Source: an uncultured Acidobacteriota bacterium
GTDB lineage: Bacteria; Acidobacteriota; UBA890
Direction: 5' to 3'
Length of the DNA stretch: 57,094 nt
Assembly: GCA_964430745.1 (NCBI GenBank)
Contig: CAYSHI010000063.1
Span: 1-57,094 of the forward strand
Part shown: positions 2,250 to 57,094 of the stretch, in pieces
How the letters are laid out: every line of letters starts with the position of its first letter
Numbering within the stretch: the stretch's first letter is position 1
Translations under genes and position numbers: made by a program
The notes under the pieces: generated by a model
Database searches by the model: none
What the model was told of the DNA's origin: nothing
Seen by the model: only the letters and a program-made list of their open reading frames with translations

Positions 2250-2250
2250 G

Positions 2251-7373: not shown

Positions 7374-7388
7374 GTTGTGTTAGCGTTC
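7374..7388. promoter_or_regulatory. candidate SOS box, a direct repeat GTTG-N7-GTTC, in the lexA/ruvX divergent region
   Basis: gttgtgttagcgttc matches the GTTC-N7-GTTC direct-repeat LexA box described for Alphaproteobacteria and Acidobacterium, with one mismatch. An inverted repeat CTAACAC(7349-7355)/GTGTTAG(7377-7383) is also present. Confidence 0.2.
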
Positions 7389-7392
7389 ACCG

Positions 7393-7839
7393 ATGATTTG
7401 GATGGGACTCGACCTCGGCAGCCGTCGCATCGGCGTGGCGATATCCGACCCCCTCGGCGTGATTGCGCAGCCGCTCACCACCCTCGAGGCTCGGGGACGG
7501 GGGACCGTGCCGCTCGGTGCGTTGCAGGAACTTGTCTCGGAACGTGACGTCGGCGGCATCGTGGTGGGATTGCCGCGCCGCCTGGACGGATCACACGGCC
7601 CGGAGGCCGAGGCCGCGGAGGCCGTAGCCGAACAGCTTCGAGTCGCCTTGAGGCTGCCCGTGGAGCTGTGGGACGAGCGCCTGACGAGCGCTCAGGCGGA
7701 GCGGGTCCTCATCGACGCGGGCGTCCGCCGCAAGCGCCGGAAGGGCGCCACCGACCGCATCGCGGCGGCGCTCATCCTGCAGGGATTCCTCGATCATCGA
7801 AGCCTGTCGCCGGCTGTTCCCGAAGCCGTCGAGCCGTGA
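7393..7839 (+). CDS. ruvX: Holliday-junction-resolvase-like nuclease RuvX (YqgF)
   Basis: GLDLGSRRIGVAISDPLGVIAQPL...DERLTSAQAE is the YqgF family signature. Confidence 0.9.
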   Translation: MIWMGLDLGSRRIGVAISDPLGVIAQPLTTLEARGRGTVPLGALQELVSERDVGGIVVGLPRRLDGSHGPEAEAAEAVAEQLRVALRLPVELWDERLTSAQAERVLIDAGVRRKRRKGATDRIAAALILQGFLDHRSLSPAVPEAVEP

Positions 7840-7844
7840 GCGCC

Positions 7845-8864
7845 ATGGCGACGGTCAGACGGATGTTGACGCCCCTTCTGATGCTCGTTGTCCTTCTGTA
7901 CCTGTCCGTCCGATTGGCTGTTGGAGTTGCCGTCGCGACGCTGGATACGCCGTTCGACGGCAATAACGGCGCCCCGGCCGTCGTCTCCGTTGCCGCGGGC
8001 GTGAGCGCCGCCCAGGTGGCCGAGTTGCTGGAGAACAGCGGCGTCATACGTCGGGCCCGGGATCTGCGCTGGTGGATGCGGCTGAACGACACGCACGGGG
8101 CCATCCATACGGGTCGATATCGTTTCGAAGGCCCGGCCACGCTGCGGCAGGTCGCCGAGGTGATCACGGAAGGTCGGGTGCTGCTCTCCTCCGTGACCGT
8201 GCTCGAGGGGGCGACGCGCTGGCAGGTCGCCGAGGCACTGGCGGCTGCCGACTTCGGAACCTACGCGGAAGCCTGGGAAGCGACCGGCAACGCCGGCTTG
8301 ATCGCCGACCTCGACCTTGAGGCCACGGACCTCGAAGGCTATCTGTTTCCGGATACCTACTTCGCCCCGCAGGACGCCGGAGCGGATGACATCGTCGCCA
8401 TGATGGTGGCGCAGTTTCACGAGATCTGGACCGCACAGCGCGCCCTCGAGGCGAGCCGGCAGGGGTTCAGCACCCGACAACTGGTAACCATCGCCTCGCT
8501 CATCGAGGCGGAGACCGGGCTTGCCGAGGAGCGCCCGCTGGTTTCCGGCGTGTACCACAATCGTCTGAATCGAAGAATGCGGCTGCAGTGTGATCCGACG
8601 CTGTTGTACGCCCTCTACCTCGACGGACGAACGGACCGCAACATACGCCGCTCGGACTTCGACAACCCGTCGCCGTACAACACGTACCGGGTCGGAGGTT
8701 TGCCGCCGGGGCCGATCGGCAACCCCGGGGCCGCCAGCATCGACGCCGCACTGGCGCCGGCGGAAACGGAGTTCATCTATTTCGTCGGGCGTAACGACGG
8801 TTCTCACGCCTTTGCGCGCACGCTCCGCGAGCACAACGCCAACGTGAATCGTTATCAACGCTGA
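7845..8864 (+). CDS. mltG: endolytic murein transglycosylase MltG (YceG)
   Basis: The N-terminal TM segment is followed by YHNRLNRRMRLQCDPTLLYA...YNTYRVGGLPPGPIGNPG, the YceG motif. The ATG at 7845 lies just after the ruvX stop; the longer ORF from 7668 overlaps ruvX. Confidence 0.9.
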   Translation: MATVRRMLTPLLMLVVLLYLSVRLAVGVAVATLDTPFDGNNGAPAVVSVAAGVSAAQVAELLENSGVIRRARDLRWWMRLNDTHGAIHTGRYRFEGPATLRQVAEVITEGRVLLSSVTVLEGATRWQVAEALAAADFGTYAEAWEATGNAGLIADLDLEATDLEGYLFPDTYFAPQDAGADDIVAMMVAQFHEIWTAQRALEASRQGFSTRQLVTIASLIEAETGLAEERPLVSGVYHNRLNRRMRLQCDPTLLYALYLDGRTDRNIRRSDFDNPSPYNTYRVGGLPPGPIGNPGAASIDAALAPAETEFIYFVGRNDGSHAFARTLREHNANVNRYQR

Positions 8865-8921
8865 GGCCTCCGCGGTTGTACACTGTGCCGTCTTGTCCTC
8901 TTTCGAACGACCGATCTCACC

Positions 8922-9437
8922 ATGAGCCGTTTACGTGAACACGCCGACCTGGAGCCGGATGCCGCGGCGGGTTTCCGTTTTGCGGTGGTCGTCAGCCGAT
9001 TCAACGGCGAGATCACCGGAGCTCTCCTCGAAGGGGCGCAGCAGACCTTGCGGCAGCACGGCGCTGCGAGCGACGCGGTGCAGGTATATGAGGTCCCCGG
9101 GGCGTTCGAGCTGCCGATGACCGCGGCCCGCCTCGCCGAAGGCGGCGTCGACGCGATCATCTGTCTGGGCGCGTTGATCAAGGGCGAGACGCCCCATTTC
9201 GACTACCTCGGAGCCTCCGTAGCACATGGTATCTGCGACGTTGCGGTACGTTCCGGTGTTCCGGTGATCTTCGGAGTCCTCACCTGCGAGCAACGCGAGC
9301 ACGCCGAGGCTCGTGCCGGGGGCGCGCGCGGTAACAAGGGAGCGGAGGCGGCGCTTGCAGCCATCGAGATGGCCGACCTCTTTGCTTCGATTTCTTCCGG
9401 AGGACCCGACGATGGGCGTCCGACATCGCGCTCGTGA
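8922..9437 (+). CDS. ribH: 6,7-dimethyl-8-ribityllumazine synthase
   Basis: [13 protein letters not shown]...[11 protein letters not shown]...[14 protein letters not shown] are RibH signatures. Confidence 0.95.
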
Positions 9438-12366
9438 GGCGGCGGTACAGTGCCTCTATCAGTGGGAGGTGACCGGTGCCGATCCGGAGAAGATCCTCGC
9501 CGGTTACTGGGAGAGCTACGGCTCCGACGATCTGGCGCTCAAGCGTTTCGCAGAGTTGCTGTTCCGTGGCACGGTGGCGCGGATTGTCGACATCGACGCT
9601 ATGATCTCCGGGCAGACCAAACACTGGCGTCTGGACCGATTGGGACTGGTCGAAAAGAGCATTCTGCGCCTCGGCGCCTACGAGCTCGCGTACGACCCGG
9701 AGACGCCGCCCGCCGTGGTCATCGATGAGGCGGTGGAGCTGTGCAAGAAATTCTGCGGTCCGGAAGCGGGGCCGTTCGTCAACGGTATCCTCGACGCCAT
9801 CAAGGGCCGCGTCGGGGAGCCCGGCGGAACCATTCGAACCGTGAAATACGACCCCTCGACGATCGAATCCAAGTGGCAGAAGCGCTGGGACGACGATGCC
9901 GTATACCGGGCCGGCGACAGCGACGAGGGCAAGAAGTACTACTGCCTCGAGATGCTCCCGTATCCGTCCGGGCGCTTGCACATGGGGCATGTTCGCAATT
10001 ACTCGCTGGGCGACGTGGTGGCGCGTTTTCGCCGCATGCGGGGCTTCAACGTCATGCACCCGATGGGATGGGACTCGTTCGGCATGCCGGCGGAAAACGC
10101 GGCCATCGAGCGCGGGACGCACCCGGCGATCTGGACGCGCGAGAACATCGCGGTGATGCGGGCACAGCTCAAGACGCTCGGCTTCGCCTACGACTGGGAT
10201 CGTGAGATCGCCAGCCATACACCGGAGTACTACCGCTGGAACCAGTGGCTGTTCCTGCGCTTCCTGGAGCGCGGCCTGGCGTATCGCAGGGAGGCCCTGC
10301 TCAACTGGTGCCCCTCGTGCGAGACGGTGCTTGCCAACGAACAGGTGGAAGACGGCGCGTGCTGGCGCTGCGGCTCGGCGGTGGAAGAGCGCCACCTGTC
10401 GCAGTGGTTCTTTCGCATTACCGAGTACGTGGAGGAGCTGCTCGAGGACGTCGACAAGCTCGAGGGTTGGCCGGAGCGCGTCCGCAATATGCAGCGCAAC
10501 TGGATCGGACGCAGCAACGGTGCTCAGGTCGCTTTTTCGGTAGAGGGCGAGGGGGAGTCGCTGGAGGTCTTCACCACGCGCATCGATACGATCTTCGGCG
10601 CCACCTTCATGGTTCTGGCTCCGGAGCACCCGCTCGCGCGCCGCTGGTATGACGGCGGACCCGGCGCGGACGCCGACCTCGATCGCGAGGCCTTCGCCGC
10701 CCGCGTCGACGAGCTGGAGAAGATGAATCGCCGGCAACGCCCCGGCGAAGAGGGCGAGAAGGAAGGGGTCTTCACCGGCCACTATGCCGTCAACCCCTTC
10801 AACGGCGAACGTCTGCCGATCTGGATCGCCAACTTCGTTCTCATGGACTACGGCACCGGCGCGATCATGGCGGTGCCGGCACACGACGAGCGAGACTTCG
10901 AATTCGCGCGCACGTACGACCTTCCCGTGCGTCCGGTGATCGCTCCCGCCGCGGGCGAGGCGGCCGACGGGATCGCCGACCCCGAAGCCATGACGGAGGC
11001 GGCGCCTATCTACGGTGCCTTGATGGATAACTGCGGCGCCTACGCCGGCATGAGCTCGGAGAGCGCGCAGGAGAAAATGGTCGCCGACGCGGAAGCCGGC
11101 GACTTCGGCGGCGCCGCGATCGACTACAGGATCAAGGACTGGGGCGTATCGCGCCAACGCTACTGGGGTACGCCGATTCCGGTGATCCATTGCGGCGCCT
11201 GCGGGGTGGTACCGGTTCCCGACGAGGATCTTCCGGTGGTGCTGCCGGAAGACGTGGAGCTTTCCGGAGAAGGAGGCTCCCCGCTGGGCAAGGTCGAGGC
11301 GTTCGTCAACGTCGATTGTCCGAGCTGCGGCTCCGCGGCACGGCGCGAGACCGACACCATGGACACGTTCGTCGACTCGTCTTGGTATTACCTGCGCTAC
11401 CTCTCGCCGCACGACACGGAAGCGCCGTTCGAGCGCGGGGCGGCTGATTACTGGCTGCCGGTGGACATCTACATCGGTGGCATCACCCACGCGGTGCTGC
11501 ACCTGCTGTACTTCCGTTTTTTCTGCAAGGCCATGGCGGACCTCGGATTGCTGCAGGTGCGGGAGCCTGTCACCCGGTTGCTCACGCAAGGCATGGTGCT
11601 GCTGGGAGGTTCGGCGATGTCGAAGTCGCGCGGCAACGTCGTCGATCCGGAGTCCATGGTGCAGCGCTATGGCGCCGACGCGACACGCCTCTTCGTCTTG
11701 TTTGCCGCGCCCCCGGAACGCGACTTCGAGTGGGACGAGGGGGGAATCGAGGGGTGTTCCCGTTTTCTCAGCCGGACCTGGACAATCGTCGAGCAGTCGC
11801 TCGCGTCGATCGCCGACGTCGGCACGTCCGGTAGCGCGACAGACTTGCCGGATGCGTTGATCAGACTACGGCGCAAAGCGCACGACACGACCCGACGGGT
11901 GACCGAAGAGATCGACCAACGATTGCACTTCAATACCGCCGTGGCGGTGCTGATGGAGCTGCTCAACGAGTGCTACGCCGCGACGGCGGAAGTACCGCCG
12001 GCCGAAGCGGGGGAGCACGCGTGGGTGTATCGGGACGCGTTCGAGCGCTTGATTGCGCTGCTGTCACCGTTCGCTCCGCACGTTACGCAGGAGCTCTGGG
12101 AGAAGCTCGGAAACGAGGGTTATCTCCTGGATAGCCCATGGCCGGCGTACGACCCGTCGGTGCTCGAACGCGAGACGGTGCGAATCGCGGTGCAGGTCGA
12201 TGGTAAGGTGCGCGGGACGGTCGAGGTTCCCGTTGATCTCACCGACAAGGATGCTCTCCTCGAGGAGGCTTCGAGGGAGGCCAACGTCGCGCGACATCTG
12301 GAGGGAAGGACCTTGGTGCGCAGTGTCGTGGTTCCCGGCAAGATCATCAGCCTGATCACATCATGA
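9412..12366 (+). CDS. single open frame encoding NusB (N-terminal ~135 aa) fused in frame to leucyl-tRNA synthetase
   Basis: The ATG at 9412 is preceded by GGAGGA. The NusB block reads [13 protein letters not shown]...[14 protein letters not shown] 9-aa linker GEPGGTIRT follows, then [16 protein letters not shown]...[16 protein letters not shown]...KMSKS-type (AMSKSRGN) LeuS. There is no stop codon anywhere between. Confidence 0.8.
9841..12366 (+). CDS. leuS: leucyl-tRNA synthetase module, with possible independent initiation at GTG 9841
   Basis: The canonical LeuS N-terminus (V/M)[12 protein letters not shown] begins at GTG 9841. HIGH-type (HMGH) and KMSKS-type motifs are present. Only a weak RBS precedes the GTG. 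Confidence 0.6.
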
Positions 12367-20064: not shown

Positions 20065-22464
20065 TCAGGTCCGCAGGCCGACGGTGATGTAGCCTGCCAG
20101 CGCCAGAAAGAGCACGTGGGGCGCCCAGGCGGCGATTGCGGGCGGAAGGATCTCGGCGGCGCCGACGGCGCGGAAGAACACGAACGCCAGCCAGAAGAGC
20201 ACCGTCAGCATCAGCGCGAGGGCAACGCCCGAGAGCGTGCCCTGCCGACCCATTCGGAAACCGAAGGGGATGCCGACGAGCGCCAACACGAAGACGATCG
20301 CCGGAAAGGCGAACTTCTGCTGAAGGTCGATCTTGTACTTGCTGGCGTCGAAGCCTCTGACCTCGAGACTGTCGATGTGGGCCCTTAGCTCGGCGGCGCT
20401 CATCTGCTCGGGCAGTCTTCGCTCCGTGCCGAAATAGGCGGGCTGTTCCGTGATACCGAGCTCGACCAACTCATACCGCATGAGCTCGGGCGAGACGATC
20501 GTGCCGTCGTCTTCGTACACGTAGTGACGCCGCCAGCTGTCGGTGGCCAGCCATCGACCCTCTTCCCAATGAGCCTGCGCCGCATAGTCGACGCGCGCGA
20601 GGCGCCAGGCCTCGTCGTCCAGGTAGTACACACGCAGCCCCTGGAAGGTCATCTGATCGGGGTCGTAGTCGGCGTAGTTGAAAACGTAGTTGCCCGTGCC
20701 GCGCGCCCAGTGGCCGCCGGCCGGGCGCACGCTGAACGGTGTGCTGCCGAGGTTGAGCGAGTGCTTGACCTCCTCGGCGCGTTGATTCGTGTACGGCACG
20801 ATGTAGTCGGATACCCCGTACTGCAGAAGGGTCAAGGCGACCGCCGGAATGAGAATGGGCGCCGCCAGACGGAAGAGGCTGGTGCCGCCGGCGAGCACCG
20901 CGACCACCTCGTTGTGCTTGCTCATCAGGCTGAACACGATGAGCACGGTGAGGATGGTGGCGATCGGCAAGGTCATCACGAAGATGAACGGGAGCTGGAA
21001 TTTGAAGTACTCGATATAGATCCAACGGCTCGCGCCGACCTGGTAGACGTCGTCGGAGATCTCGAAATACTCGCCGATCATCCAGATCACCGTGAGGCCG
21101 CCGAGCGTGAGTGCGCCGATGCGAAGAAACTGGGTCAGCACATAGACGTCGAGGATACGGGGAAAGCCTCGCCCGTGATAAGAGCCGCCCACACGGGACT
21201 TGCGCTCGGTAGCGGCGATCTCGGACTCTCCACGCGCGGCGTGCCACGCGTCGATCACGTGCTCGCGGACGTAGTCAGAGATGCGCAGCGCGGTATCGAG
21301 AATGCCGAAGTCCTTCTCGCGGGCCTTGGCCCACAGCAGGATCAGAGCCGCGAGAGCGATGACGATGTCGGCTGCCCACACCCCGAGCCACGGAGCGATG
21401 GCGCCCTCCTCCGCAAACTTCTCCCCGCCGTCGATGAACATGTAGTAGACGGCGATAACGCCGATGGCCATGAGGTAGCCGGTGGCCTTGGTCTGTCGCG
21501 TTGTCGAAACCCCGAGGGGGAGGGCGATCAGAGCCATTACCAGCCCCGCCACGGGGATGGCGAACTTCTTGTGCACCTCGACGGCGAAGCGCTCCGTGGG
21601 TTGGCCGGCCGCCTCTCGGACGGCGATCTCGGCGCGCAGTTCCGCCACGTTCATGGTGCGCTCGTCCTTCGACACCGGCGCGACGGCACTCCCGGCCTGG
21701 CTGTCCAGAAGCTGGCGCTGCTCGGCGAACGACGTGACGCTGGACTCTTCGGCGGTGGCGCCGCCCTCGTAGATGTAGCCGTCCGTGAGCTCGATCCAGG
21801 CCTCGCGATTGGCGTTGCTGTAGGTCGCGAGGGCGCCCTCCGCCATGATGACCTGAGGCGGGTTGGAGTCGGTCCGCACGAGCATGAGCTGCTCCCAACG
21901 CTGGTCCGGTTGCGTGACCTCCTCGACGAAGAGCGTGAAATTGGGGAAGCGCGTCTCGAAGACGCGGGGGCGAACCTGGTTCGTGAGGGTGCGGGAGTTG
22001 ATGAGCCGCCACTGGAGCTGGCGGACCTCGTTGTTTCCCCACGGCAGGATGACCAGGCAGAGGTAGAGGTTGAGCAAGAAGGCCGCGAAGCCGACCAGCA
22101 GGATCGGCAACGCCAGCTGATAGAGGCTGATGCCGCTGCTGCGTAGGGCGATGATCTCGGCGTCGGCGGACAGCCGGCCGAAGCCGATCAGCCCTCCGAC
22201 CAGGACCGCCATCGGCACCGTTAGCACGATGATGTGCGGCACGGTGTACAGGAAGAGCAGCCCGACGTCGCCGGCGCTCAAGCGGTCGCGAATGATCCAC
22301 TCGGCGAACTGCAGCAGCGTGTTCATCAACATGAAAAACGTAAACAGACCGAAGCCCATCAGCGTGGGGGCCGTGAGCTCGCGCAGCACGTAGATGACCA
22401 GGGTGGGGGACGGCGGGCGAAACGACCGCATACGGCCCGCGGTGGCGGCTTCGGCGCCGTTCAT
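20065..22464 (-). CDS. fused LPS export permease LptF-LptG (two YjgP/YjgQ modules in one 799-aa ORF)
   Basis: The N-terminal half reads IYVLRELTAPTLMGFGLFTFFML...IIALRSSGISLYQL. A second module begins around residue 430 (ILDVYVLTQFLRIGALTLGGL...VAVLAGGTSLFRL). The ATG overlaps the upstream GT2 stop (ATGA). Confidence 0.85.
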   Translation of the reverse strand: MNGAEAATAGRMRSFRPPSPTLVIYVLRELTAPTLMGFGLFTFFMLMNTLLQFAEWIIRDRLSAGDVGLLFLYTVPHIIVLTVPMAVLVGGLIGFGRLSADAEIIALRSSGISLYQLALPILLVGFAAFLLNLYLCLVILPWGNNEVRQLQWRLINSRTLTNQVRPRVFETRFPNFTLFVEEVTQPDQRWEQLMLVRTDSNPPQVIMAEGALATYSNANREAWIELTDGYIYEGGATAEESSVTSFAEQRQLLDSQAGSAVAPVSKDERTMNVAELRAEIAVREAAGQPTERFAVEVHKKFAIPVAGLVMALIALPLGVSTTRQTKATGYLMAIGVIAVYYMFIDGGEKFAEEGAIAPWLGVWAADIVIALAALILLWAKAREKDFGILDTALRISDYVREHVIDAWHAARGESEIAATERKSRVGGSYHGRGFPRILDVYVLTQFLRIGALTLGGLTVIWMIGEYFEISDDVYQVGASRWIYIEYFKFQLPFIFVMTLPIATILTVLIVFSLMSKHNEVVAVLAGGTSLFRLAAPILIPAVALTLLQYGVSDYIVPYTNQRAEEVKHSLNLGSTPFSVRPAGGHWARGTGNYVFNYADYDPDQMTFQGLRVYYLDDEAWRLARVDYAAQAHWEEGRWLATDSWRRHYVYEDDGTIVSPELMRYELVELGITEQPAYFGTERRLPEQMSAAELRAHIDSLEVRGFDASKYKIDLQQKFAFPAIVFVLALVGIPFGFRMGRQGTLSGVALALMLTVLFWLAFVFFRAVGAAEILPPAIAAWAPHVLFLALAGYITVGLRT

Positions 22465-23132
22465 CGGGCAGTCTCGTAGTGGCGGGCCAGGAGCGCGGGA
22501 TCAACGCCGCAGTAGTAGAGGCTGCGCAGCAACCACATTCTGAGGATCGTGCGTACGGCCCCGCCTCGCTCCCATCGGCGTGGCGACGTGATCACCGCCG
22601 GCCGCAGCCTCGCCACCCGGCCTGCGCGCTTGAGACGGCGACTGAACTCGATGTCCTCGAACAGGGGGAGCGGCGCGAAGCCGCCGAGACGCTCGAACAC
22701 CTCGCGGCTGACGAACATTGCCTGGTCACCCGAAGACACGCCGGTGAGCCGGCTGCGCAACGAGATCAGGAAGCCCACGAGGCGCAACAGCATGCGATCG
22801 GAATCGAGCGCGACGTCGAAGTTGCCGCCGACCGCTCCGTCGCGGACGGCGCGGCGCACGGCGGTAAGCGCGCCGGACGGAAGGCGCGTGTCGGCGTGTA
22901 GAAACAGCAGGGTCGCCCCGCGAGCCACTTTCGCTCCCGCGTTCATTTGCGCCGCGCGTCCGCGTGACGCGGCGACATGGCGGTATCCTGAAGCGGTTAA
23001 CAGCCGCGTTGTCTCGTCGCTGCTGCCTCCATCCACAAAGACGATATCGGCGGCGAGCTTGTTGAGGTAGTGAAGCAGTTTCGGCAAGGTGGAGGCTTCA
23101 TTGAGCACGGGGATGATGATGCTGACGCACAC
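22461..23132 (-). CDS. family 2 glycosyltransferase (TIGR04283-like)
   Basis: VSIIIPVLNEASTLPKLL...IVFVDGGSSDET...FLHADTRLP is a GT-A fold with DxD-type motifs. Confidence 0.8.
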   Translation of the reverse strand: MCVSIIIPVLNEASTLPKLLHYLNKLAADIVFVDGGSSDETTRLLTASGYRHVAASRGRAAQMNAGAKVARGATLLFLHADTRLPSGALTAVRRAVRDGAVGGNFDVALDSDRMLLRLVGFLISLRSRLTGVSSGDQAMFVSREVFERLGGFAPLPLFEDIEFSRRLKRAGRVARLRPAVITSPRRWERGGAVRTILRMWLLRSLYYCGVDPALLARHYETAR

Positions 23133-48227: not shown

Positions 48228-49988
48228 CTACGGCCGGCTGGGGGTGGGCAGCGCGGCGTCCATCAAGGTCCACACCGGCCCGGCGGCGCGTATCTGTTGA
48301 AACTGACGCCACGCGTCCGCTGCCGTCGAAGGGACGAACGAAGTCCACGCCTGCACCGCGACGCGAGCCGAGGCGACTGTGGTAAACAACCGGGAGAACT
48401 CCTGGAAGAGCGTTCTTGGCGCCGGATACACACGGATCGTCGTGCCGCTGGACGGGCCGATCCCCGCCTCGGCGCGCGCCGCGGCAAGTGCCTCCCGGAG
48501 GCCTCCGATGTCGTCGACGAGGCCGTGCTCGAGCGCCTGCGCGCCCGTCCAGACCCGCCCCTGGGCCACCGCGTGGACATCTTCGGCGCTCATGTCGCGG
48601 CCGGCGGCGACGACTTCGAGAAACTCCGCATAAGTGTCGGCCACGCTGCGCTCGAGAACCTCTGCCTGCTCCGGTCGCAAGTTGGTCGTGCTGGTGAGCA
48701 GGTCGGCGTTCGTCCCCCGTGTTACCAGCCCGTGGGAGACCCCGAGCAGGTCGTACGTTTCGCGCAGGCTCAGGCGGCCCATGACGACGCCGATCGAGCC
48801 GGTATAGGTGGCGCGATTGGCGAATACACGCGTTGCTTTGCTGGCGATCCAGTAACCTCCCGACGCGGCGACGTCCGACATGCTCACGACCACGGGCTTT
48901 CGCTGAGCCGCCAGCTCGATCTCGCGACCCATCACGTCGGCTGCGGTGACCGCGCCGCCGCCGCTGTCGATTCGCACGACGATGGCCTTGACGGACGAAT
49001 CCTCTCGCGCCTCGCGAATGTATCGAGCGATGGTGTTGCCGGCGGCGACCTCGGCGCCGAACAGGCCGCCCTCGAGATCGCCCGGCACCATGAGCCCGCC
49101 GACATGCACGAGCGCGATGACGTTGTCGGACCCGAGGATCGCCTGAAACCCGCCCGGCGCGGTGGCGCGGAGGTACTCGCGCACGTTCAAACGACGTGGC
49201 GAACGACCGGCGATCTCGGTGAGCGCGCTGTCCACCTGGTCGCGATACCCGAGCTCGTCGATCAAACCGAGATCGCGAGCCCGGGTCGCCGAAACCAGGC
49301 CTTCGTCGAAGGCGGCGCGGACCTCATCGCCCGACAAGCCGCGGTCGGAGGCGACGTCCGTCACCCACTGCTTGTAGAGACTCTCGAGGAGGCTTTCGTC
49401 CATCTCTCGCTGGGCCTCGCCGAGCTCTCTCTCGGTCAAGGCGTTGAAGGCGGACTTGTACGGCCCGCTGGCGAAGACGTCGAAGCGCACGCCGAGCTTG
49501 TCGAAGAGGTCTCGGTAGAAGGGCTCCTCGACCAGCATTCCCAGGATCAGTTGTCCGGAGGGCACTTGATAGATGGTTTCCGCCGCCGACGCCATGTAGA
49601 GATCGAGATTGGATCCGAGCTCGATCAGAGCCACCACCGGCTTGCCGGTGTCGCGAAATCGCTGCACCGCGGCCCGTACTTCCTGCGTCTTGCCGTACCC
49701 TCCGGTCAGGGGGCCCACTTCGAGGAAGACACCCTCGACCCGGTTGTCGTCGGCAGCCCGTCGGAGCGCTTCATCGATCTCCCGCACTGTCAACGGCCCC
49801 AGAAAGGGCCCGGACTGCGCCACTTCCCCCAGCGCTCCCTGAAGGCGGATGGTCAGCACCATGCTTCCGCCGACGGCCGGCGTGCCCCCCACGAGAAGAC
49901 GGTTCAGAGCCCACACGAAAAGCGTGAAGCCGAGAAAGAACACGAGCAGCGTGCTCAGAATCCAGATACCGATTCGTCGAGTAGCCAT
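48228..49988 (-). CDS. sppA: signal peptide peptidase SppA, 67K (two-domain) type
   Basis: An N-terminal TM segment precedes duplicated ClpP/crotonase-like domains, with the catalytic block SDVAASGGYWIA. Confidence 0.9.
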   Translation of the reverse strand: MATRRIGIWILSTLLVFFLGFTLFVWALNRLLVGGTPAVGGSMVLTIRLQGALGEVAQSGPFLGPLTVREIDEALRRAADDNRVEGVFLEVGPLTGGYGKTQEVRAAVQRFRDTGKPVVALIELGSNLDLYMASAAETIYQVPSGQLILGMLVEEPFYRDLFDKLGVRFDVFASGPYKSAFNALTERELGEAQREMDESLLESLYKQWVTDVASDRGLSGDEVRAAFDEGLVSATRARDLGLIDELGYRDQVDSALTEIAGRSPRRLNVREYLRATAPGGFQAILGSDNVIALVHVGGLMVPGDLEGGLFGAEVAAGNTIARYIREAREDSSVKAIVVRIDSGGGAVTAADVMGREIELAAQRKPVVVSMSDVAASGGYWIASKATRVFANRATYTGSIGVVMGRLSLRETYDLLGVSHGLVTRGTNADLLTSTTNLRPEQAEVLERSVADTYAEFLEVVAAGRDMSAEDVHAVAQGRVWTGAQALEHGLVDDIGGLREALAAARAEAGIGPSSGTTIRVYPAPRTLFQEFSRLFTTVASARVAVQAWTSFVPSTAADAWRQFQQIRAAGPVWTLMDAALPTPSRP

Positions 49989-50037: not shown

Positions 50038-51819
50038 TCAGTGCCGGCTCCAGCCCGTAACCGTGATCTTGTAGATCTGCGGCGTGCGCGGGGGGAGCTT
50101 GGCGAGGTCGAGGAAGTCGGTCTCGAAGCTCCAGTTGCGGATGGGCGCGCCGTAGACGTCGGTCTGAACGTACGGGCCGGTGGCGTGCTCCGACTCCCAG
50201 AGAGCGACCAGGCTCCCGAGAAGGGTCAACTGTACGCCGGACCACTGCTCCAACAGCCGTGGGAGGTTCTCGAGACCGCCGTTGAAACTGGCGCCCATAT
50301 CGACGTTTCCCGTCATGATGGCCGCATTCACCGTCGTCGACGTCGCGGGACGGCCGCTGAGGTTCAACAGGCTGTAGTCGAGGTCGCTGTCGAAAACCCC
50401 GTCCCCGTCCACGTCGCCCCAATTGTTGCTCAAGATCGTCAGCGCGTCGGACATGAGGGCGGCGGGCTGTTTGTTGAACGTGTTGAAACTGCCGTGGATG
50501 TACAGAGGGTTGTCCGTCACGAGCGTCAGCGGCCCCGGAATCTGTGTGGTGCTCCGGGTCTTGAAGGCGAACTCGGTGAGGGCGCTGTTCCACGGCGTTG
50601 TGTACCCGCTCCATTCCGAGGGACCGACCCCGACCGCGACGCCCGGCCACGCAGGCATATCAGAGTCGGGCTGGAACGCACCCAGATAGACCACTCCGTT
50701 GAGCGGATAACCGGGCGAACGCCCGAGCTTGTCGACGTCGAGCTCGACGGTAAGCATGTGCGCGTTTTCTCGCTTGTCCCAGAGCGTCGTGTAGCTGACG
50801 GCGTCCAATCCCGTGACCGGGTCCACAAGCGATACGAGGTTACCGGCGTTGTCGTAGCCGCGCCCGTTGACGATACGCAGGCCGGCGGCGTACCAGAGCT
50901 TCGCCGCCTGATCGGGAAGCGAGTCGCCGGCACGCCCCGGCTCGATGATCAGGCGCGGATCGGTAGGATCCTCGATGACCAGATCGACACGATCGCCGCC
51001 GATCTCACCGGAGCGTACCCGTCCGTCCCAGCGGCTGATCGCATCAGAGGTCCACGTCGCGCTCTCGGAGTCGAGGCCGGCCATGTCTTGGAAAATTCCC
51101 GCCGAGTCCTTGATTCGAACCGCTCCGCCGTTTGCCCAGCCGGCCTCGCGCCGGTTGTAGATATTGCCGAAGGCGGTGACCGTGGAGTCGAAAGCGACCT
51201 GCACGGTGGGGTCTACATAGATGTCCGAGTTGCTGTGGACCCTCCCACCGATCGTCATCACCGGCGCGGGGTGTATATCCAGGTCGCCTTCGTAAAGGAC
51301 GCCGAATTGAAAGACGGGAATCGCGGCGAACTCGCCCTGTATCTCGACCGTAGCCTCGCTCTCGGGTGGGCCCGCCCCTTCGGTCTTGGCAAGCGCGCGA
51401 AACCGCTGGATCTCGGCGGAGAGGCCGACGTACAGGCCGTCGGCCAGCGTCGTCTGACGCATCGGCCCGTCGGCGAAAGCGTCGAACTGTGTGAGGGTGA
51501 CGCCGCTGAAAGCGGGCGCGGAGATCGCGTCCAGCTCGATGTCGGAGGGAAAGCGGCCAAGCGTTCGCGTCATACTGATGAGGTCGCGCAGAAGCAGGCG
51601 CGACGCTCCGTCGGCAGGGAGAAACGTCTGCTGCGCGGCCGTCAGGTTGGCCGATATGGCGATCTCGGTTGTCGCCACCTGAGCCACGACCATCGCCATC
51701 AACCCGATGGCGAACAGCGACATCAGGATCATCAGGAGAACCGTGCCTTGATCGGAGGCAAGGCCGGGCGCCTGCCTGGGATCTCGGCGCCGGAACGTCT
51801 TGTCGAGTGGGCGTAGCAT
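50038..51819 (-). CDS. large PilX-N-domain (GspK/PilX-like) pseudopilin-associated protein, copy 1
   Basis: The N-terminal hydrophobic segment QGTVLLMILMSLFAIGLMAMVVAQVATTEIAISAN lacks Glu5. The product is 593 aa and is a full-length paralogue of 53667..55475. A DVDGDGVFD loop is present. Confidence 0.7.
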   Translation of the reverse strand: MLRPLDKTFRRRDPRQAPGLASDQGTVLLMILMSLFAIGLMAMVVAQVATTEIAISANLTAAQQTFLPADGASRLLLRDLISMTRTLGRFPSDIELDAISAPAFSGVTLTQFDAFADGPMRQTTLADGLYVGLSAEIQRFRALAKTEGAGPPESEATVEIQGEFAAIPVFQFGVLYEGDLDIHPAPVMTIGGRVHSNSDIYVDPTVQVAFDSTVTAFGNIYNRREAGWANGGAVRIKDSAGIFQDMAGLDSESATWTSDAISRWDGRVRSGEIGGDRVDLVIEDPTDPRLIIEPGRAGDSLPDQAAKLWYAAGLRIVNGRGYDNAGNLVSLVDPVTGLDAVSYTTLWDKRENAHMLTVELDVDKLGRSPGYPLNGVVYLGAFQPDSDMPAWPGVAVGVGPSEWSGYTTPWNSALTEFAFKTRSTTQIPGPLTLVTDNPLYIHGSFNTFNKQPAALMSDALTILSNNWGDVDGDGVFDSDLDYSLLNLSGRPATSTTVNAAIMTGNVDMGASFNGGLENLPRLLEQWSGVQLTLLGSLVALWESEHATGPYVQTDVYGAPIRNWSFETDFLDLAKLPPRTPQIYKITVTGWSRH

Positions 51820-51972
51820 GCGTGGGTTCCCTACCGCGAGGGATTCTGACCTCTACGAGGGTAACCAACGCCGGGACCGTGGAACAACTCCGGAATGGGT
51901 TGTTTGAATCGAGTGCGGCAGGGCGTCAAAGATCAATAATGACTTTTGCTATGATACGACAATCCTCGATGA

Positions 51973-52260
51973 CTAAAAGCGCGTTTCAAAGGCTTCGAAC
52001 GTCCCGGCGGCTTCACCCCAGGACGTCTCGATGTGCTCCACCCGAGCGGCTGGAGGCCCGACTCGGCAATACTCCAACAGAGAATCGCAGGCGGGGCGAG
52101 GTCCTTCGGCGACGAGCTCCACGGCTCCGTCGCTTCTGTTTCGAACCCAACCTGTCAAGCGAAGCGCGCGCGCCGTGCGCTCGGTGCCGGCCCGGTAGAA
52201 GACGCCTTGCACCCGCCCGCTGATCCGCGCCTCCAGGCGCACAGCGGAATCCGCGTTCAT
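51973..52260 (-). CDS. acyP: acylphosphatase
   Basis: [41 protein letters not shown] is the acylphosphatase signature. The start lies 1 nt after the PilW-like stop. Confidence 0.9.
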
Positions 52261-52261
52261 C

Positions 52262-53086
52262 TCAGGATGTCAGCATCGCGGAGCGCGGGGCGATGCGCGT
52301 GCGGAGCGTCACGGTACGCTCCTGCGTGGTGTTGAGGCGGACGTCTTCGGTCTCGACCACGAGCGTGACCTCGATCACCTTCACACGCAGCTGATCGGCA
52401 ATCGTCGCCGGGGTGAAGGCCTGAGGAGGGTTGGCGTCGTCGAAGTAGGTGATCGTCATCGAACGCACGTTGATCGCGACCGGCTGCGGGGTGGCCCCGT
52501 CCTCCTGGCGCTGCAGCCAGAATGCGCCGCCGGCGGCCTGCAGATTGTAACTGGTCGTTTGAACACGCTTGACGGCGGTGCCGTCCGCGACGCGGTAGGC
52601 CTTCGAGAGGCCTCCGCTCTGTGTCAACACGCCGCTGGACACAGCGGTCAACGTCGTGAGGTCGAAGCCTCCGGTCCCGTCGTACACGACGACCACCATG
52701 CCGGCGTCGAATCCGGTGGAATCATCGACCTGCAGGCTCCCGGAGCCGCCGCCCATATCGGCGGTGAGCCGCGCCGTGAGGTTGTCGCTGTTGTAGCGGA
52801 CGTCGATGCCGCCGTCCAAACGCGGCTCGATGACCGGCACGGGCGAGAGCATTCCGAGCAGGCCGATGCCGGCCAGCTCGATGTCGCGCTGCATCTGTGC
52901 GATCGCGAGGCGGGCGGTCATCTGGGCGTCGATGAGCTGCTGCTGATCCCTTTGAACGTCGCGCAACCCGCTGAGCATGAGCAGCATGCCCCCCACGACA
53001 AGCACGGACATGAGGCTGGCAACGAGCAGTTCCAGCAGGCTGAATCCGTGCTGGTCCGCGGGCCCAAGGCGCTGAATCGAAGACAC
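52262..53086 (-). CDS. PilW/GspJ-like minor pseudopilin, copy 1
   Basis: The prepilin site is G|FSLLELLVA (Glu5). The GTG at 53086 gives a 14-aa leader ([14 protein letters not shown]), matching copy 2. The ORF is open to 53275 but that part overlaps the PilV-like gene. Confidence 0.72.
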
Positions 53087-53144
53087 CGTGCCGTCGGCCC
53101 CCGCTCCCGGCCCCGCGACACCGGTGCTCCGGGGGACCGGCGGC

Positions 53145-53633
53145 CTACTGGATGTCGGTGCGAAAGGTGTCCAGCAGGATCTCGCGTGGAGGTCCCCAGA
53201 TGGACGCACGCTCACCGACGACAAGCTGAATGCGCTTGCGGCCGGGGTTCTCATCGGTGACCTGCCAGCGGACATAGCGATCGGGGTCGCCCAGGTACGG
53301 ATCCAGCGAGTAGCCGCCGGAGGAAGCTACGATCGAGCCGCCGGCGACAAGCTGCGCGTCGGTAAACGGCAGCCCTCGAATAATCTCCATCTGCTGCGAC
53401 CCGGCGGCCGTGAGCTCGGTGATCTCCTGGGCGGCGGCTGATGTCTGTAATGCCATGAGCATCATCGGCGCGACAGCCAGAGCGATCAGCCCCACCAGGA
53501 AGCCGGAAACGAGCACCTCCAGGAGTGTGAAGCCCTGCTGACCACGGCGACACTCGGATTCTCGCCTCCCGGTTATCGGTTCCAGACAACCATGCCACGT
53601 CCGCAGTGTCCTCGGAAATACCTCGTTGTTCAT
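53145..53633 (-). CDS. PilV/GspI-like minor pseudopilin, copy 1
   Basis: The prepilin site is QQG|FTLLEVLVSG. The nearest canonical in-frame start with an RBS (GGCGGAG) is the ATG at 53633, which gives a 34-aa leader. Confidence 0.72.
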   Translation of the reverse strand: MNNEVFPRTLRTWHGCLEPITGRRESECRRGQQGFTLLEVLVSGFLVGLIALAVAPMMLMALQTSAAAQEITELTAAGSQQMEIIRGLPFTDAQLVAGGSIVASSGGYSLDPYLGDPDRYVRWQVTDENPGRKRIQLVVGERASIWGPPREILLDTFRTDIQ

Positions 53634-53666
53634 TGTCGCTCCGCCGCTGAGCATCACAATCCCTCT

Positions 53667-55475
53667 TCAGTGCTGCCGCTCCCAGCCGAGCACGCGAATC
53701 GTATACACGCTCGGCGTGCCCGGTGGGAGATTCGCGGGATCGAGGAAATCGGTATCGAACGACCAGTTTCGGTTTGGCGCGGTGTAGATCGGGTTGCCGT
53801 AGATCCAGTTGCCGGTGGCGTTGCGGGCGTTCCAGAGGTCGATGATGCTCCCCAGATAGGTGAACGTGTCGCCGCTCCAGCGCTCCAGAAAGCGCATGAC
53901 GTTCTCGACGCCGCCGTTGTATTGGGCATTGGGCACGGTATCCGTGTTGCCCATCATGATGGCGGCGTTGACCGTCGTGCTCCAGGCGTTGCGGCTGTTG
54001 AGCGCCTGCTGGCTGTAGTTGAGATCGCCGTCGCCGGCATCGGTCGTGTCACCGTCGCCGTTCACGTCACCCCAGCGGTTGCTGAGGATGGTGACCGCGT
54101 CCGCGATGACCGCCGCGCCAACCTTGTTGACGTTGTTGTAGTTCCCCTGCACGTAGGTCGGATTGTCGGAAACCACCGTGGTCGGGGTGGCGAGCTGCGA
54201 TCCGTTGGTCAGCTTGACGGCGAATTCCGTGGTTCCACCACCGCCCCACGGTGTCGCGTAGCCGGCCCATGCGGCCGGTCCGACGCCGCCGGCGCCGCCC
54301 ACCCAGTTCGGGTAGACACCGCCGTCGGGCTGATAGCCGCCGACGTAGAGGATGAGGTCGTTCGGCGGGTGGTCGACCAGGTTGCCGAGCTTCTGCATGT
54401 CGATCTCGGTGGTCAACATGTGCTTGTTGTCCCGCGCGTCCCAGATGATCGTTTCCGTGATCGCCGGCGTACCGCTGACCGGGTCGATCAGCGGGATCGG
54501 ATTGCCGCCGTTGTCGAAGCCCTGCCCGTTGATGATGCGGATGTCGGCGTCGTACCACATCTTGGCGGCCTGGTCCGCCGGCGTATCCGCCGCGCCCCAA
54601 GGCTCGATGATCTTGTACGGATTCGTCGGATCCTCGATGGTCAGGTTGAGCCTCTCGACCGCGTGGTCCTTCGAGCGCACGTTGCCGTCCCAGCGGGTGA
54701 TCGCGTCCGTGACCCAGTTCGGAGAGGATGAATCGAGGCCGGCCATGGCAGGAAAGTTGCCCACCGAGTCGCGGATGACCACGTTACCGCCCATCGCGGC
54801 GGCCGCGTCCTTGCGGCGGTTGTAGATGTCGCCCGCGGAGGTCATCAGGGAGTCGACCGTCAGCGTGTTGTGCGTGCCGATGTAGATGTCCATGTTGCTG
54901 TGCACGCGGCCGTTGATCCACATGTTGGGGCCGGGAAGGATCTCCAGATCCTCCTCGTAGAAGATCGCGAACTGAAAGATCGGGATGATGTCGAAGTCCG
55001 CGGTCATCGCGACCGTCGATGTGCCGAACGGAGGCAGCGCGGTCTCGGCGGTCGTGGTTACCGTGAACGGTTGGGTGGCGGCGACCAGTCCCTGGAAGAA
55101 CCCGGTCGTCAGCGGTCCTAGGGTTTGAGGGCCCGACGCCGCGATGTCGAACGTCGAGTACGTGATGTCCGTGAGCACCGGAGGCACGATTGCGGCCATC
55201 TCGCCGGCCGTGGGAAAACGCCCACGCGCGCGGCCGACGTTGAGTAGCTCGTCAAGACCGTACTCAGAGCCCCCGTCCGCCGCGTAAAAGGCGCGATTGA
55301 CGCTGCGGTAGTTACCCGTCACTTCCATCTCGGTTTGCGCGACGCGCGAGATGGCAACGCCCGTCAGGGCGACGATGAACAGCGCCAACATGGTGATGAG
55401 CAACGTCATGCCTTCTTCGCCGGAAAACAAGCGTGGCATCGGCGTCGCGTTGCGCTTCGCGTTCTCGTTGATCAT
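53667..55475 (-). CDS. large PilX-N-domain (GspK/PilX-like) pseudopilin-associated protein, copy 2
   Basis: The N-terminal segment EGMTLLITMLALFIVALTGVAISRVAQTEMEVTGN lacks Glu5. The product is 602 aa. DVNGDGDTTDAGDGD loops are present. Confidence 0.7.
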   Translation of the reverse strand: MINENAKRNATPMPRLFSGEEGMTLLITMLALFIVALTGVAISRVAQTEMEVTGNYRSVNRAFYAADGGSEYGLDELLNVGRARGRFPTAGEMAAIVPPVLTDITYSTFDIAASGPQTLGPLTTGFFQGLVAATQPFTVTTTAETALPPFGTSTVAMTADFDIIPIFQFAIFYEEDLEILPGPNMWINGRVHSNMDIYIGTHNTLTVDSLMTSAGDIYNRRKDAAAAMGGNVVIRDSVGNFPAMAGLDSSSPNWVTDAITRWDGNVRSKDHAVERLNLTIEDPTNPYKIIEPWGAADTPADQAAKMWYDADIRIINGQGFDNGGNPIPLIDPVSGTPAITETIIWDARDNKHMLTTEIDMQKLGNLVDHPPNDLILYVGGYQPDGGVYPNWVGGAGGVGPAAWAGYATPWGGGGTTEFAVKLTNGSQLATPTTVVSDNPTYVQGNYNNVNKVGAAVIADAVTILSNRWGDVNGDGDTTDAGDGDLNYSQQALNSRNAWSTTVNAAIMMGNTDTVPNAQYNGGVENVMRFLERWSGDTFTYLGSIIDLWNARNATGNWIYGNPIYTAPNRNWSFDTDFLDPANLPPGTPSVYTIRVLGWERQH

Positions 55476-55508
55476 GGCTTCATCCCCCGGAGGAGAGGGG
55501 TCATCCCA

Positions 55509-56324
55509 TTACGAGAGAATGATCGCTCTCGGTGTCACCTGCGTCGTAAGTGTTCTCTGTCGTTCGTTCACGGCGTTGAGCTGCGGGTCTTCGGTCTCGA
55601 CGGTCAGCGCGACCTGGATTGTCTGGATCAGCAGCTGCTGGGCAACGGTCGCCGGATTGAAGACCGCGGAAGGAGTGCTGTTGTTCCAGTAGGTGACGTT
55701 GAACGCCGCTACATTGCCGGCGAGCGGTTCCGGCGCCTCGGCGTTGACCTGGCGGAGGAGGCGATCCTGTCCGTCGACGGAGTAGGTGATCGTCTCGATA
55801 CGGGCGACCGCCGTCCCGTCGGCCACCGTGAAAATCTTGGTGGTGCCATCATGCGAGATGCGGTCGGCGCCGAGATTGACGCCGGTGACGGTGACGAAGC
55901 TCAGCGCGCCGGCATTGTCGTAGACGGCGATGCCCATTCCGGGTGCGAAACCGGCTGCGTCGTCGACCCGGAGATCAGCGCCCGTCCCGCCCATGTCCAC
56001 GACGAGGCTTGCCCTCACCCCGCTCTGGTTGTGGCGCACGGTGAAGCCGCCACCCACTTCCGGTACCACCAGAGGCATCGGCGCAACCAGCCAGGCAATC
56101 CCGACTCCCGCCATCTGCAAGTCACGTTGCACTTGATCGAGCGAAATCCGGGCCGCCTGCTGGGAGTCGATCATCTGCTGGCTATCGCGCTGGATCTCTT
56201 CGATCGAGACGAGCATCGACAAGACGGCACCGACGACAAGCGTCGAAACGAGCATCGCCACCATCAGCTCGATCAGGCTGTATCCGGCGTTCTCGAACCA
56301 CCGGTGTTGCTTGGTCGTCGTCAT
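55509..56324 (-). CDS. PilW/GspJ-like minor pseudopilin, copy 2
   Basis: The ATG at 56324 is preceded by AGAGG. The leader is MTTTKQHRWFENAG|YSLIELMVAM (Glu5). The protein is colinear with copy 1. Confidence 0.8.
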   Translation of the reverse strand: MTTTKQHRWFENAGYSLIELMVAMLVSTLVVGAVLSMLVSIEEIQRDSQQMIDSQQAARISLDQVQRDLQMAGVGIAWLVAPMPLVVPEVGGGFTVRHNQSGVRASLVVDMGGTGADLRVDDAAGFAPGMGIAVYDNAGALSFVTVTGVNLGADRISHDGTTKIFTVADGTAVARIETITYSVDGQDRLLRQVNAEAPEPLAGNVAAFNVTYWNNSTPSAVFNPATVAQQLLIQTIQVALTVETEDPQLNAVNERQRTLTTQVTPRAIILS

Positions 56325-56346
56325 CGTCGTTGCCTCTCGGTCCCGG

Positions 56347-56892
56347 CTATTGAAGGTCTGTTCGGTACGTCTCGAGAGCGACCTCGCGAGGTGGCCCCCA
56401 GACCGACGTGCGGATTCCGGCCACAAGCTCGATGTGCTTGCGCGAGGGACTGACGCTGGTGATGCGCCAGCGGAGATATCGGTTGGCGTCGCCATTGAAG
56501 GGGTCGAGCGAGTACCCGGCGTCCGAAGACGTGAGCGACCCGCCGGCCGCGAGGTCCGCGTGGTTGAACGGAAGTGCTCGCAGGATCTCGATTCTCTCCG
56601 CCCCGTCGGAGGTCAGCTCGGTTGCCTGCTGCGCCACGGCCGAGGTCTGCACCGCCATCAGCATCAGAGGCGCGACGGCGAGGGCCACAAGGCCGACGAG
56701 GCCGGTCGCCACGAGAACCTCCAAAAGGGTGAACCCCGCCTGGTGCGGACTTCTCGCTCCGGCGGTCGGCCACCCATCGATTGTGAGTCTTGTCTGCGCC
56801 GTGCACTTCTCTACCCGTGTTGTCGTGTCCGCGAATATCGTCCTGCAGCACGTCTTGATTAGTATCAAGTTGTAACAATTAATACAAGGCAT
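56347..56892 (-). CDS. PilV/GspI-like minor pseudopilin, copy 2 (start uncertain)
   Basis: The prepilin site is QAG|FTLLEVLVATG. About 60% of residues look identical to copy 1 by eye. The only canonical in-frame starts are GTG 56901, ATG 56892 and TTG 56868, and all lie in AT-rich palindromic DNA. Confidence 0.7.
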   Translation of the reverse strand: MPCINCYNLILIKTCCRTIFADTTTRVEKCTAQTRLTIDGWPTAGARSPHQAGFTLLEVLVATGLVGLVALAVAPLMLMAVQTSAVAQQATELTSDGAERIEILRALPFNHADLAAGGSLTSSDAGYSLDPFNGDANRYLRWRITSVSPSRKHIELVAGIRTSVWGPPREVALETYRTDLQ

Positions 56893-56919
56893 GAAGCACA
56901 CTATTCTAGCCGCTATAAG

Positions 56920-56949
56920 TATATATATGGTAACTTAAGACAGCGCCAA
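56920..56949 (-). promoter_or_regulatory. sigma70-like promoter candidate for the pseudopilin operon
   Basis: On the minus strand: TTGGCG (56949-44), a 17/18-nt spacer, then ATATAT/TATATA (56926-20). It lies inside the only strongly AT-rich stretch of the window. Confidence 0.25.
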
Positions 56950-57094
56950 ATAGATATAGCTAAGCACGAACACTATTGCTCACTTTATCTTTCCGACAAC
57001 CCGCGAAGGGTTCTCCTACTATCAGGTAATGAAACACACACCGGACGTCGGAATCCACAACCAATCACCTACCCCCCCCCGGGTTGGCCAGAAG

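Follow-up and report, generated by a model that had tools for sequence, protein, structure and literature searches.

Several described filament systems carry sets of minor pilins that can be compared to the ones reported here. [quoted passage not shown] Pseudomonas has a priming and tip complex whose core minor pilins are FimU-PilV-PilW-PilX, with PilY1, and in Myxococcus xanthus three paralogous minor-pilin/PilY1 sets serve one type IVa pilus machine (PMC7541494). Thermus thermophilus encodes, in the order pilA1-pilA2-pilA3-comZ, a small GspI-like pilin, a GspJ-like one and then ComZ, a pilin of about 550 aa without Glu5. In cyanobacteria, different pili are primed by several sets within a genome, and the large beta head of the pilin-like cap PilX/HpsA, encoded with PilV- and PilW-like genes, was proposed to replace PilY1 (preprint 10.64898/2026.02.12.705559). 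Here we describe a metagenomic contig of 57,094 nt from an uncultured Acidobacteriota bacterium (CAYSHI010000063.1, assembly GCA_964430745.1), analysed over its whole length and called the window in the following. On its minus strand, read from 56901 to 50038, two diverged cassettes follow each other in the order V2, W2, X2, V1, W1, acylphosphatase, X1; genes for SppA and a UvrD-type helicase come next (Table 1). V and W are prepilins, X is a giant pilin-like protein of about 600 aa. We consider it probable that these cassettes are two paralogous minor-pilin priming or tip sets for a type IV filament whose machine is encoded elsewhere in the genome.

With the Thermus genes, the cassettes share the order of a small GspI-like, a GspJ-like and a giant pilin lacking Glu5. 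The strand order predicted for X2 would fit that of ComZ (PDB 6QVI), and TTHA1219 (PDB 5G23) was the top structural match of W2. However, neither a PilA1/FimU-like gene nor a major pilin gene is adjacent here, and X, which has no significant sequence or Foldseek match to ComZ, is tied by sequence to HpsA. The homology of X to cyanobacterial PilX/HpsA, found with HpsB-D (NF038301, NF038303, NF038304), is real but partial. Each is a putative pilin-like cap that bears a large beta head and whose gene accompanies PilV- and PilW-like genes, and the domain order of the cyanobacterial protein (bioRxiv 10.64898/2026.02.12.705559) is the same as that of the X2 model. X has about 600 aa, however, and not about 1500, the cyanobacterial sets include a FimT-type fourth pilin that the sets of the window lack, no hps glycosyltransferase genes are found here, and the phylum is Acidobacteriota. 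The T2SS shares with our locus the I-J-K order, the cap without Glu5 and the XcpW-like fold predicted for W, whereas GspK has about 325 aa with an alpha-helical insertion and X a beta-rich insertion of about 400 residues. Furthermore, no Gsp machinery or GspH gene adjoins the cassettes in the window, and in other lineages PilT-like and PilM/PilN genes lie nearby. The core minor pilins of Pseudomonas and the paralogous sets of Myxococcus can be likened to the two sets described here, but neither PilY1 nor a FimU-like adaptor is encoded, and the cap pilin itself bears the bulky head.

A giant cap in place of PilY1 and alternative tips were already proposed, for ComZ in 2019 and, with genetics, for cyanobacterial PilX/HpsA in 2026, and multiple minor-pilin sets are established in Myxococcus. 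The locus does not represent a new kind of system, since its concept and main predictions are already in the literature. New are the Acidobacteriota lineage and the breadth of an almost wholly unannotated family, a form with three genes and no GspH/FimU-type pilin, and the conserved neighbours, an embedded acylphosphatase and an adjacent SppA. The locus would carry the concept of a cap pilin that replaces PilY1 by a bulky head of its own beyond Thermus and cyanobacteria, and two anciently duplicated, co-diverged sets offer a natural example for testing the orthogonality of tip complexes.

Minor pilins V and W and the putative capping pilin X

V and W are type IV pilin-like proteins with a class III signal peptide. 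The features sought were Gly at -1, Glu at +5, a residue at +1 that is aromatic or hydrophobic, about 20 residues of hydrophobic helix after these, and a score above the cut-off of N_methyl (PF07963, 21.2 bits). The cleavage sites (marked by a slash) read G/FTLLE in V2 and V1, G/YSLIE in W2 and G/FSLLE in W1, and a six-frame pattern scan of the entire 57 kb found prepilin motifs at these four places only. Three of the four proteins passed the N_methyl cut-off (V2, 29.3 bits; V1, 24.7 bits; W2, 23.6 bits). Among 48 V proteins from related loci, the NCBIfam profile PilV was matched by 46 (best 2e-13) and GspI by 38. V2 itself scored 26-27 bits with PilV (TIGR02523, cut-off 52.2 bits) and 16.6-17.8 bits with GspI (TIGR01707, cut-off 44.35 bits), below both cut-offs.

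For W2, an AlphaFold2 model with a predicted local distance difference test (pLDDT) score of 76 was compared to known structures by Foldseek. The top matches were TTHA1219 (E = 1.3e-3, probability 0.98), the Thermus PilA3-type pilin whose gene adjoins comZ, and XcpW (E = 2.6e-3, probability 1.0), the GspJ of Pseudomonas aeruginosa. Over the XcpW chains, probabilities were 0.95-1.0 and E-values 2.6e-3 to 3e-2, with TM-scores of 0.3-0.5 on this pLDDT-76 model. TTHA1219 was also weakly matched (E = 0.06) when the W profile was run against PDB sequences, a search in which the V, W and X profiles gave matches to the N-terminal helix only. Pfam PilW (PF16074) was matched by 6 of 53 W family members. 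Around residues 100-170, W2 has an inserted small beta-barrel with a motif conserved in the W family, DD.sGF..G....YD; the barrel is similar to a domain found at the N-terminus of phage tailspikes and depolymerases (4RU5, 4Y9V, 9K4A). In lineages without a GspH-like gene, W is about 75 aa longer.

X is a capping pilin of the PilX/GspK type by its helix, which has the Gly and lacks Glu5, by the PilX_N domain of X2, and by the position of its gene after V and W. The sites EEG/MTLLI (X2) and DQG/TVLLM (X1) consist of Gly and a hydrophobic segment with Ile or Met at +5, and this Gly22 was kept in at least 90 % of 60 X relatives. Polar residues that did not vary in the alignment are, in X2 numbering, H192, N194, D459, N525, E531 and R569. 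X2 matched PilX_N (PF14341) with 31.1 bits, above the cut-off of 25.5 bits. All 60 relatives matched HpsA (best 1e-28) and nine of them GspK (best 4.7e-6); neither X1 nor X2 matched GspK (NCBIfam NF037980) at E <= 0.1. With the HpsA profile (NCBIfam NF038301, 1503 positions), X2 scored 63.7 bits (E = 7e-18) and X1 70.5 bits (E = 6e-20), each over two short stretches: residues ~151-233 of X align to profile positions 274-357 and residues ~491-552 to positions 1333-1398. The equivalog cut-off being 400 bits, X is, judged by sequence, related to HpsA but not an HpsA equivalog.

In the AlphaFold2 model of X2 (pLDDT 91.8, predicted template modelling score 0.87), a helix of 65 residues (20-84) is followed by four strands (104-165), residues 171-572 make up a beta-rich block, and the last strand spans residues 589-601. 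The predicted insertion into the pilin-like part is about 400 residues long and made of short strands, and not helical as in GspK. The strand order of the model would correspond to a ComZ-type domain order, an assignment that rests on this order and on the link to HpsA, not on a superposition. The beta-helix likeness of X2 to tapirin, hemolysin A, an ice-binding protein and tailspikes came from weak, long Foldseek alignments, which we do not regard as evidence.

An initial annotation, made from the letters of the window without database searches, had read V as PilV/GspI-like and W as PilW/GspJ-like, both keeping a Gly-1, Phe(Tyr)+1, Glu+5 signature, and X as PilX/GspK-like without Glu5. The signature was found in all four proteins, and the assignments are borne out: for V by the profile matches of its family, for W by Foldseek and the PilW matches, and for X by PilX_N, the GspK matches and the last slot of a Brocadia operon (see below). 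The possibility, raised there as well, that X belongs to an already characterised family applies in part. X is related to HpsA/PilX and would have a ComZ-type domain order, but it scores far below the HpsA equivalog cut-off. This relationship lowers the novelty of the proposal and does not affect its correctness.

Filament machine and alternative assignments

The distribution of the X family of about 600 aa, which the initial annotation had proposed to follow up, covers many phyla. In a scan of one genome per species with a profile from a 27-sequence X alignment, at least 560 relatives were confirmed; they belong to Acidobacteriota, Zixibacteria, Ignavibacteria, Planctomycetota (including the anammox bacterium Ca. 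Brocadia), Omnitrophota, Methylomirabilota, Syntrophales, KSB1, Calditrichota and others. A hidden Markov model search of 1.84 billion cluster representatives (50 % identity) gave 2,326 matches at E <= 1e-30. The order V-W-X was present in most of 84 loci from many phyla (given as L numbers where they have to be told apart), and in nearly all cases a small prepilin (mature part 109-130 aa) and a larger one lay ahead of X on its strand. Overall, the triad is conserved in more than 500 species-level genomes. Two sub-architectures could be distinguished. Acidobacteriota, Zixibacteria and Ignavibacteria have V, a W of about 260 aa and X, with no fourth pilin. Planctomycetota, Omnitrophota and a metagenome-assembled genome (MAG) labelled Verrucomicrobiota have a pilin of about 145-150 aa, a small protein (annotated in L015 only), a W of about 170-190 aa and X.

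Two of these loci link the triad to machine genes. In Ca. Brocadia pituitae, the string T2SSE, T2SSE, T2SSF, GspH (PF12019), a 124-aa protein, an N_methyl protein and X corresponds to the canonical order E-F-H-I-J-K, X taking the place of K. In L039, V-W-X is followed by a TPR protein, a T2SSE ATPase of 364 aa, which is PilT-sized, and further on a PilM/PilN protein. The two linkages connect the triad with type IV filament machines and favour a type IVa pilus over a T2SS. Directly upstream of V-W-X, L039 also encodes a 1988-aa Big_1/invasin-repeat protein (19-5985) and an outer-membrane beta-barrel protein (5997-6746).

The T2SS is the assignment to be considered next. V, W and X would be the GspI-J-K equivalents of a pseudopilus tip, and X would be a piston head contacting periplasmic substrates. 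The XcpW-like fold predicted for W, the GspI and GspK matches among V and X relatives and the GspH protein of the Brocadia operon are in line with it. We nevertheless regard it as unlikely. PilV outranks GspI for V, the ATPase and PilM/PilN protein of L039 are parts of a type IVa pilus, no GspC, D, L or M gene was found near any locus examined, and the nearest characterised relatives of X, ComZ and HpsA/PilX, serve type IV pili (PMC6561018; preprint 10.64898/2026.02.12.705559). Since the minor pilins of the Thermus pilus resemble T2SS pseudopilins too (PMC6561018), the fold alone does not discriminate.

In the type IV filament mechanism that we propose, V and W would be cut after Gly-1 and act as Glu5-carrying pilins, and X would be the terminal subunit: its hydrophobic helix lacks Glu5, so that nothing could be added above it. 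By analogy with GspI-J-K, PilV-W-X and PilA2-PilA3-ComZ, the helices of V, W and X would come together in the inner membrane as a bundle that primes major-pilin polymerisation. Its final place would be the distal tip, where the beta head of X might cap or plug the fibre and provide a contact surface in place of PilY1. Most likely, V2-W2-X2 and V1-W1-acylphosphatase-X1 would prime two alternative fibres or tips from one machine, with ATPase, platform, secretin, major pilin and prepilin peptidase encoded elsewhere. The analogies are drawn from ComZ-PilA2 (PMC6561018), the cyanobacterial EPS/Com sets (preprint 10.64898/2026.02.12.705559), M. xanthus (PMC7541494) and hpsA-D (PMC6495340).

A number of results weigh against this proposal. 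W1 scored 17.6 bits with N_methyl, below the cut-off, yet it has the G/FSLLE site. No Pfam match of X1 reached threshold, and the profile scores to PilV, GspI, GspK, HpsA/B/C and PilW were all under the curated cut-offs. A Foldseek search of PDB and BFVD with the X2 model gave no significant match, ComZ (6QVI) was absent among the 50 matches listed, and the X profile, run against PDB sequences, found ComZ at E = 1.4 over the N-terminal helix only. Within 10 kb of the cassettes of L001, L003, L004, L005 and L085, we found no pilus machine, major pilin or GspH/FimU-like adaptor. Motif and Pfam scans of the contig itself likewise detected none of these components, neither ATPase, platform protein, secretin and alignment proteins nor major pilin and prepilin peptidase. 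Neither the window nor any of the neighbourhoods examined encoded PilY1.

The link to HpsA opens another option, namely that X is a short HpsA orthologue, with V and W being HpsB/C-like, and that the cassettes function in the export or binding of extracellular polysaccharide. Indeed, besides the HpsA matches of X1, X2 and all relatives, W2 matched HpsC (2e-8) and V2 HpsB (8e-4), a Wzy_C-family gene lies divergently upstream in L003 and L004, and hpsA-D are required for the secretion of hormogonium polysaccharide (PMC6495340). However, the matches of 64-70 bits stand against a cut-off of 400 and cover two short stretches of the profile, and Pfam scans of the window and L004 found no adjacent glycosyltransferase or hpsE-K-like genes. 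Moreover, the 2026 preprint recasts HpsA as a PilX-type tip pilin (10.64898/2026.02.12.705559), which makes this option more a sub-case of the two priming sets proposed here than a rival to them. As a separate explanation, it appears quite improbable.

X might also be a ComZ-like DNA receptor, at least one cassette priming a competence pilus for DNA uptake. The domain order predicted for X and the match of W to PilA3, whose gene lies beside comZ (PMC6561018), would fit, and cyanobacteria dedicate one of two minor-pilin sets to competence (preprint 10.64898/2026.02.12.705559). X, however, has no significant sequence or Foldseek similarity to ComZ and relates to the HpsA ('EPS') branch and not to the competence branch, the DNA-binding lysines of ComZ could not be mapped onto X, and Pfam scans of the window ORFs (open reading frames) showed no com genes nearby. 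We consider a role in competence very unlikely.

Age and retention of the duplication

The two sets differ clearly and align over their full length. In pairwise BLASTP, X2 and X1 were 47 % identical over 595 columns (532 bits, end to end), W2 and W1 39 % (E = 1e-78) and V2 and V1 59 % (E = 1e-62), scores that greatly exceed chance expectation. An assembly artefact was rejected on the basis of the 47 % identity at the protein level and of the same layout in the independent assemblies L004 and L010. A mobile-element or horizontal origin of the extra cassette was also considered; there was no composition anomaly, and Pfam scans of the window ORFs showed no adjacent integrase or transposase.

In a neighbour-joining tree, the X proteins of Acidobacteriota loci formed two clades. 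X1 was grouped with the only X of L009, L011 (OZ244217.1) and L012 and with the second X in L004 and L010, at 64-70 % identity to X1. X2 was grouped with the first X of these last two loci and with the X of L001, L006, L007 and L031, at 59-78 % identity to X2. The W tree showed the same two-way split, and the short V tree was too shallow to resolve how the duplication arose. The window, L004 and L010 each have intact members of the two paralogue clades. Since each clade occurs intact in several genomes, the duplication is older than the divergence of these genomes, and both copies were kept intact. The full-length, diverged pairs and the old duplication that the initial annotation had described are thus confirmed, the latter by the X and W trees.

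That the second cassette is a redundant or decaying duplicate without a distinct role, as might be suggested by its position next to the first one on the same strand, by the lack of a visible regulatory region of its own and by the similarity of the heads, is highly improbable given that all six ORFs are intact, that orthologues at 64-78 % identity exist elsewhere and the X and W trees split alike, both sets having been kept through speciation, and that tandem duplication occurred independently in L005 (V-W-X-V-W-X). In Zixibacteria and Ignavibacteria (L022, L029, L033, L043, L046, L054, L072), V is single and W and X are multiplied (V-W-W-X-X, V-W-X-X-X, V-W-W-W-X). In L069, a long-read Acidobacteriota MAG, an X2-type gene (7938-9776) is broken over several frames, either by frameshift errors or as a pseudogene. 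This split X is followed by V-acylphosphatase-SppA-UvrD, and no X1-type W or X was detected.

The identity between X1 and X2 was not uniform. It was 29 % in the helix, 37 % in the sheet and 54-55 % in the head; the same comparison gave 42 % for W and 63 % for V. This pattern suggests that the two sets may have diverged mainly in their assembly interfaces. With a pilin part at 29-37 % and a head at 54-55 %, insulated assembly fits better than different adhesive specificities. In this respect the conserved heads speak against the "different distal ends" that the two sets had been thought to display. A bolder version of our proposal would see in the V-W-X of Acidobacteriota, Zixibacteria and Ignavibacteria, with its long W, a distinct three-pilin tip. 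The W of about 260 aa, with its additional tailspike-like beta-barrel, would replace the GspH/FimU adaptor and the head of X would replace PilY1, the linkage to SppA and the embedded acylphosphatase would reflect a dedicated maturation, and the contrast between stalk and head would reflect insulated sets that make two filaments with one machine. We hold this version to be doubtful.

Neighbouring genes and coordinates

The positions and the order of the seven minus-strand ORFs given in the initial annotation agree with the ORF list, and its statement that no other pilus genes are in view is correct, as judged from the six-frame motif scan and from Pfam scans of the 30 other large ORFs of the contig. 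These ORFs belong to housekeeping families only, with no pilus-machinery gene among them: LpxA/LpxI, LexA, RuvX, LeuRS, LptE, MurJ, a XerC/D-type recombinase, MetK, LptFG, ETF, an ATP-dependent ligase, M23 and SLT-LysM enzymes, Rho, and DUF2207, MFS and MBL proteins.

Table 1. Coordinates of the two cassettes and of adjoining features in the window.
Feature	Position	Strand	Basis or remark
V2, PilV/GspI-like minor pilin	56347..56901	-	ORF; Pfam N_methyl; NCBIfam top match PilV
V2, mature part	begins at F (56733), G at 56734-56736	-	true start codon uncertain
W2, PilW/GspJ-like minor pilin	55509..56324	-	271 aa from MTTTKQ..., cleavage site NAG/YSLIE
W2, longest ORF	55509-56495	-	
X2, 602-aa capping pilin	53667..55475	-	PilX_N, HpsA profile match, AlphaFold2 model
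V1, PilV/GspI-like minor pilin, second set	53145..53657	-	N_methyl; alignment to V2
W1, PilW/GspJ-like minor pilin, second set	52262..53086	-	ORF; groups with W of X1-type cassettes
Acylphosphatase gene between W1 and X1	51973..52260	-	Pfam PF00708, 85.7 bits
X1, 593-aa paralogue of X2	50038..51819	-	resident clade adjoining SppA-UvrD; HpsA profile match
SppA signal-peptide peptidase, conserved downstream neighbour	48228..49988	-	TIGR00705 324.7 bits
AT-rich stretch upstream of V2	56860..57030	-	sequence reading; about 170 nt in a 65 % G+C contig

The starts of the longest ORFs of V and W are probably too far upstream. For W2, the start at 56324 is probable and is also used by the database gene call P0121. 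For W1, whose longest ORF extends to 53275, the GTG at 53086 is the probable start and gives a 14-aa leader. In V2, the nearest in-frame ATG, GTG or TTG lies at least 44 codons from the cleavage site and none gives a short leader, so that either the leader is of unusual length or translation begins at a non-canonical codon. The AT-rich stretch likely represents the promoter or 5' region of the seven-gene string; a scan of the cassette region for the sigma-70 consensus found nothing, and a terminator scan was likewise uninformative.

The nearest relatives of X2 (up to 78 % identity) come from Acidobacteriota MAGs; an exact-sequence look-up of X2 found no other contig. Ground beyond the ends of the window was judged from the syntenic JGI contig L004. 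With an X that is 78 % identical, it has the same layout, V-W-X-V-W-acylphosphatase-X-SppA-UvrD-...-aminoacylase-MarR, and upstream of its first V a divergent Wzy_C-family gene is followed by HD-domain, TrkA and GreA genes, with no pilus machinery among them. In L003, a more distantly related MAG (GCA_012103255.1), V-W-X-acylphosphatase-SppA-UvrD is present once, in the same surroundings on the chromosome. The window edge therefore does not cut through a conventional operon that ends with the cassettes, a point on which the initial annotation had made its reading depend. The Wzy_C-family gene lies at 7131-8432 (-) in L003 and at 3330-4283 (-) in L004, and the equivalent position in the window would fall just past the contig end. 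The Wzy_C family includes O-antigen ligases and the pilin O-glycosyltransferases PilO/PglL.

The acylphosphatase gene follows the stop codon of W1 after a 1-nt spacer and is probably co-transcribed with the cassette. It lies between W and X of the X1-type cassette in the window, L004, L009, L010 and L011; L003 has it after X, and L012 lacks it. A connection of acylphosphatase to pilins is not obvious. The X1-type cassettes are the residents adjoining SppA-UvrD. SppA (S49) directly follows X in 14 of the 84 loci, other phyla included, among them the window, L003, L004, L009-L012, L069, L028, L033, L035, L044 and L054. It lies on the same strand as X in Acidobacteriota, and convergently, about 70-120 nt past X, in Ignavibacteriales, Zixibacteria and L044, which is labelled only 'bacterium'. 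We regard SppA as context of the pilin system.

In L085, a 5.76-Mb Acidobacteriota contig (ERZ26167216), a further V-W-X cassette has an X of 681 aa. It comes after genes for a hybrid histidine kinase, for a response regulator and for a PAS-GGDEF-EAL protein on the same strand (region 766-8575), which hints at control of this cassette by cyclic di-GMP.

Two other ORFs of the window deserve mention. At 9313-12366 (+), a 1017-aa ORF comprises a NusB domain and a full-length leucyl-tRNA synthetase with no stop in between, an arrangement that points either to a NusB-LeuRS fusion or to an error in sequencing. At 20068-22500 (-), an 811-aa ORF with two LptF_LptG matches suggests a fused LptF-LptG permease.

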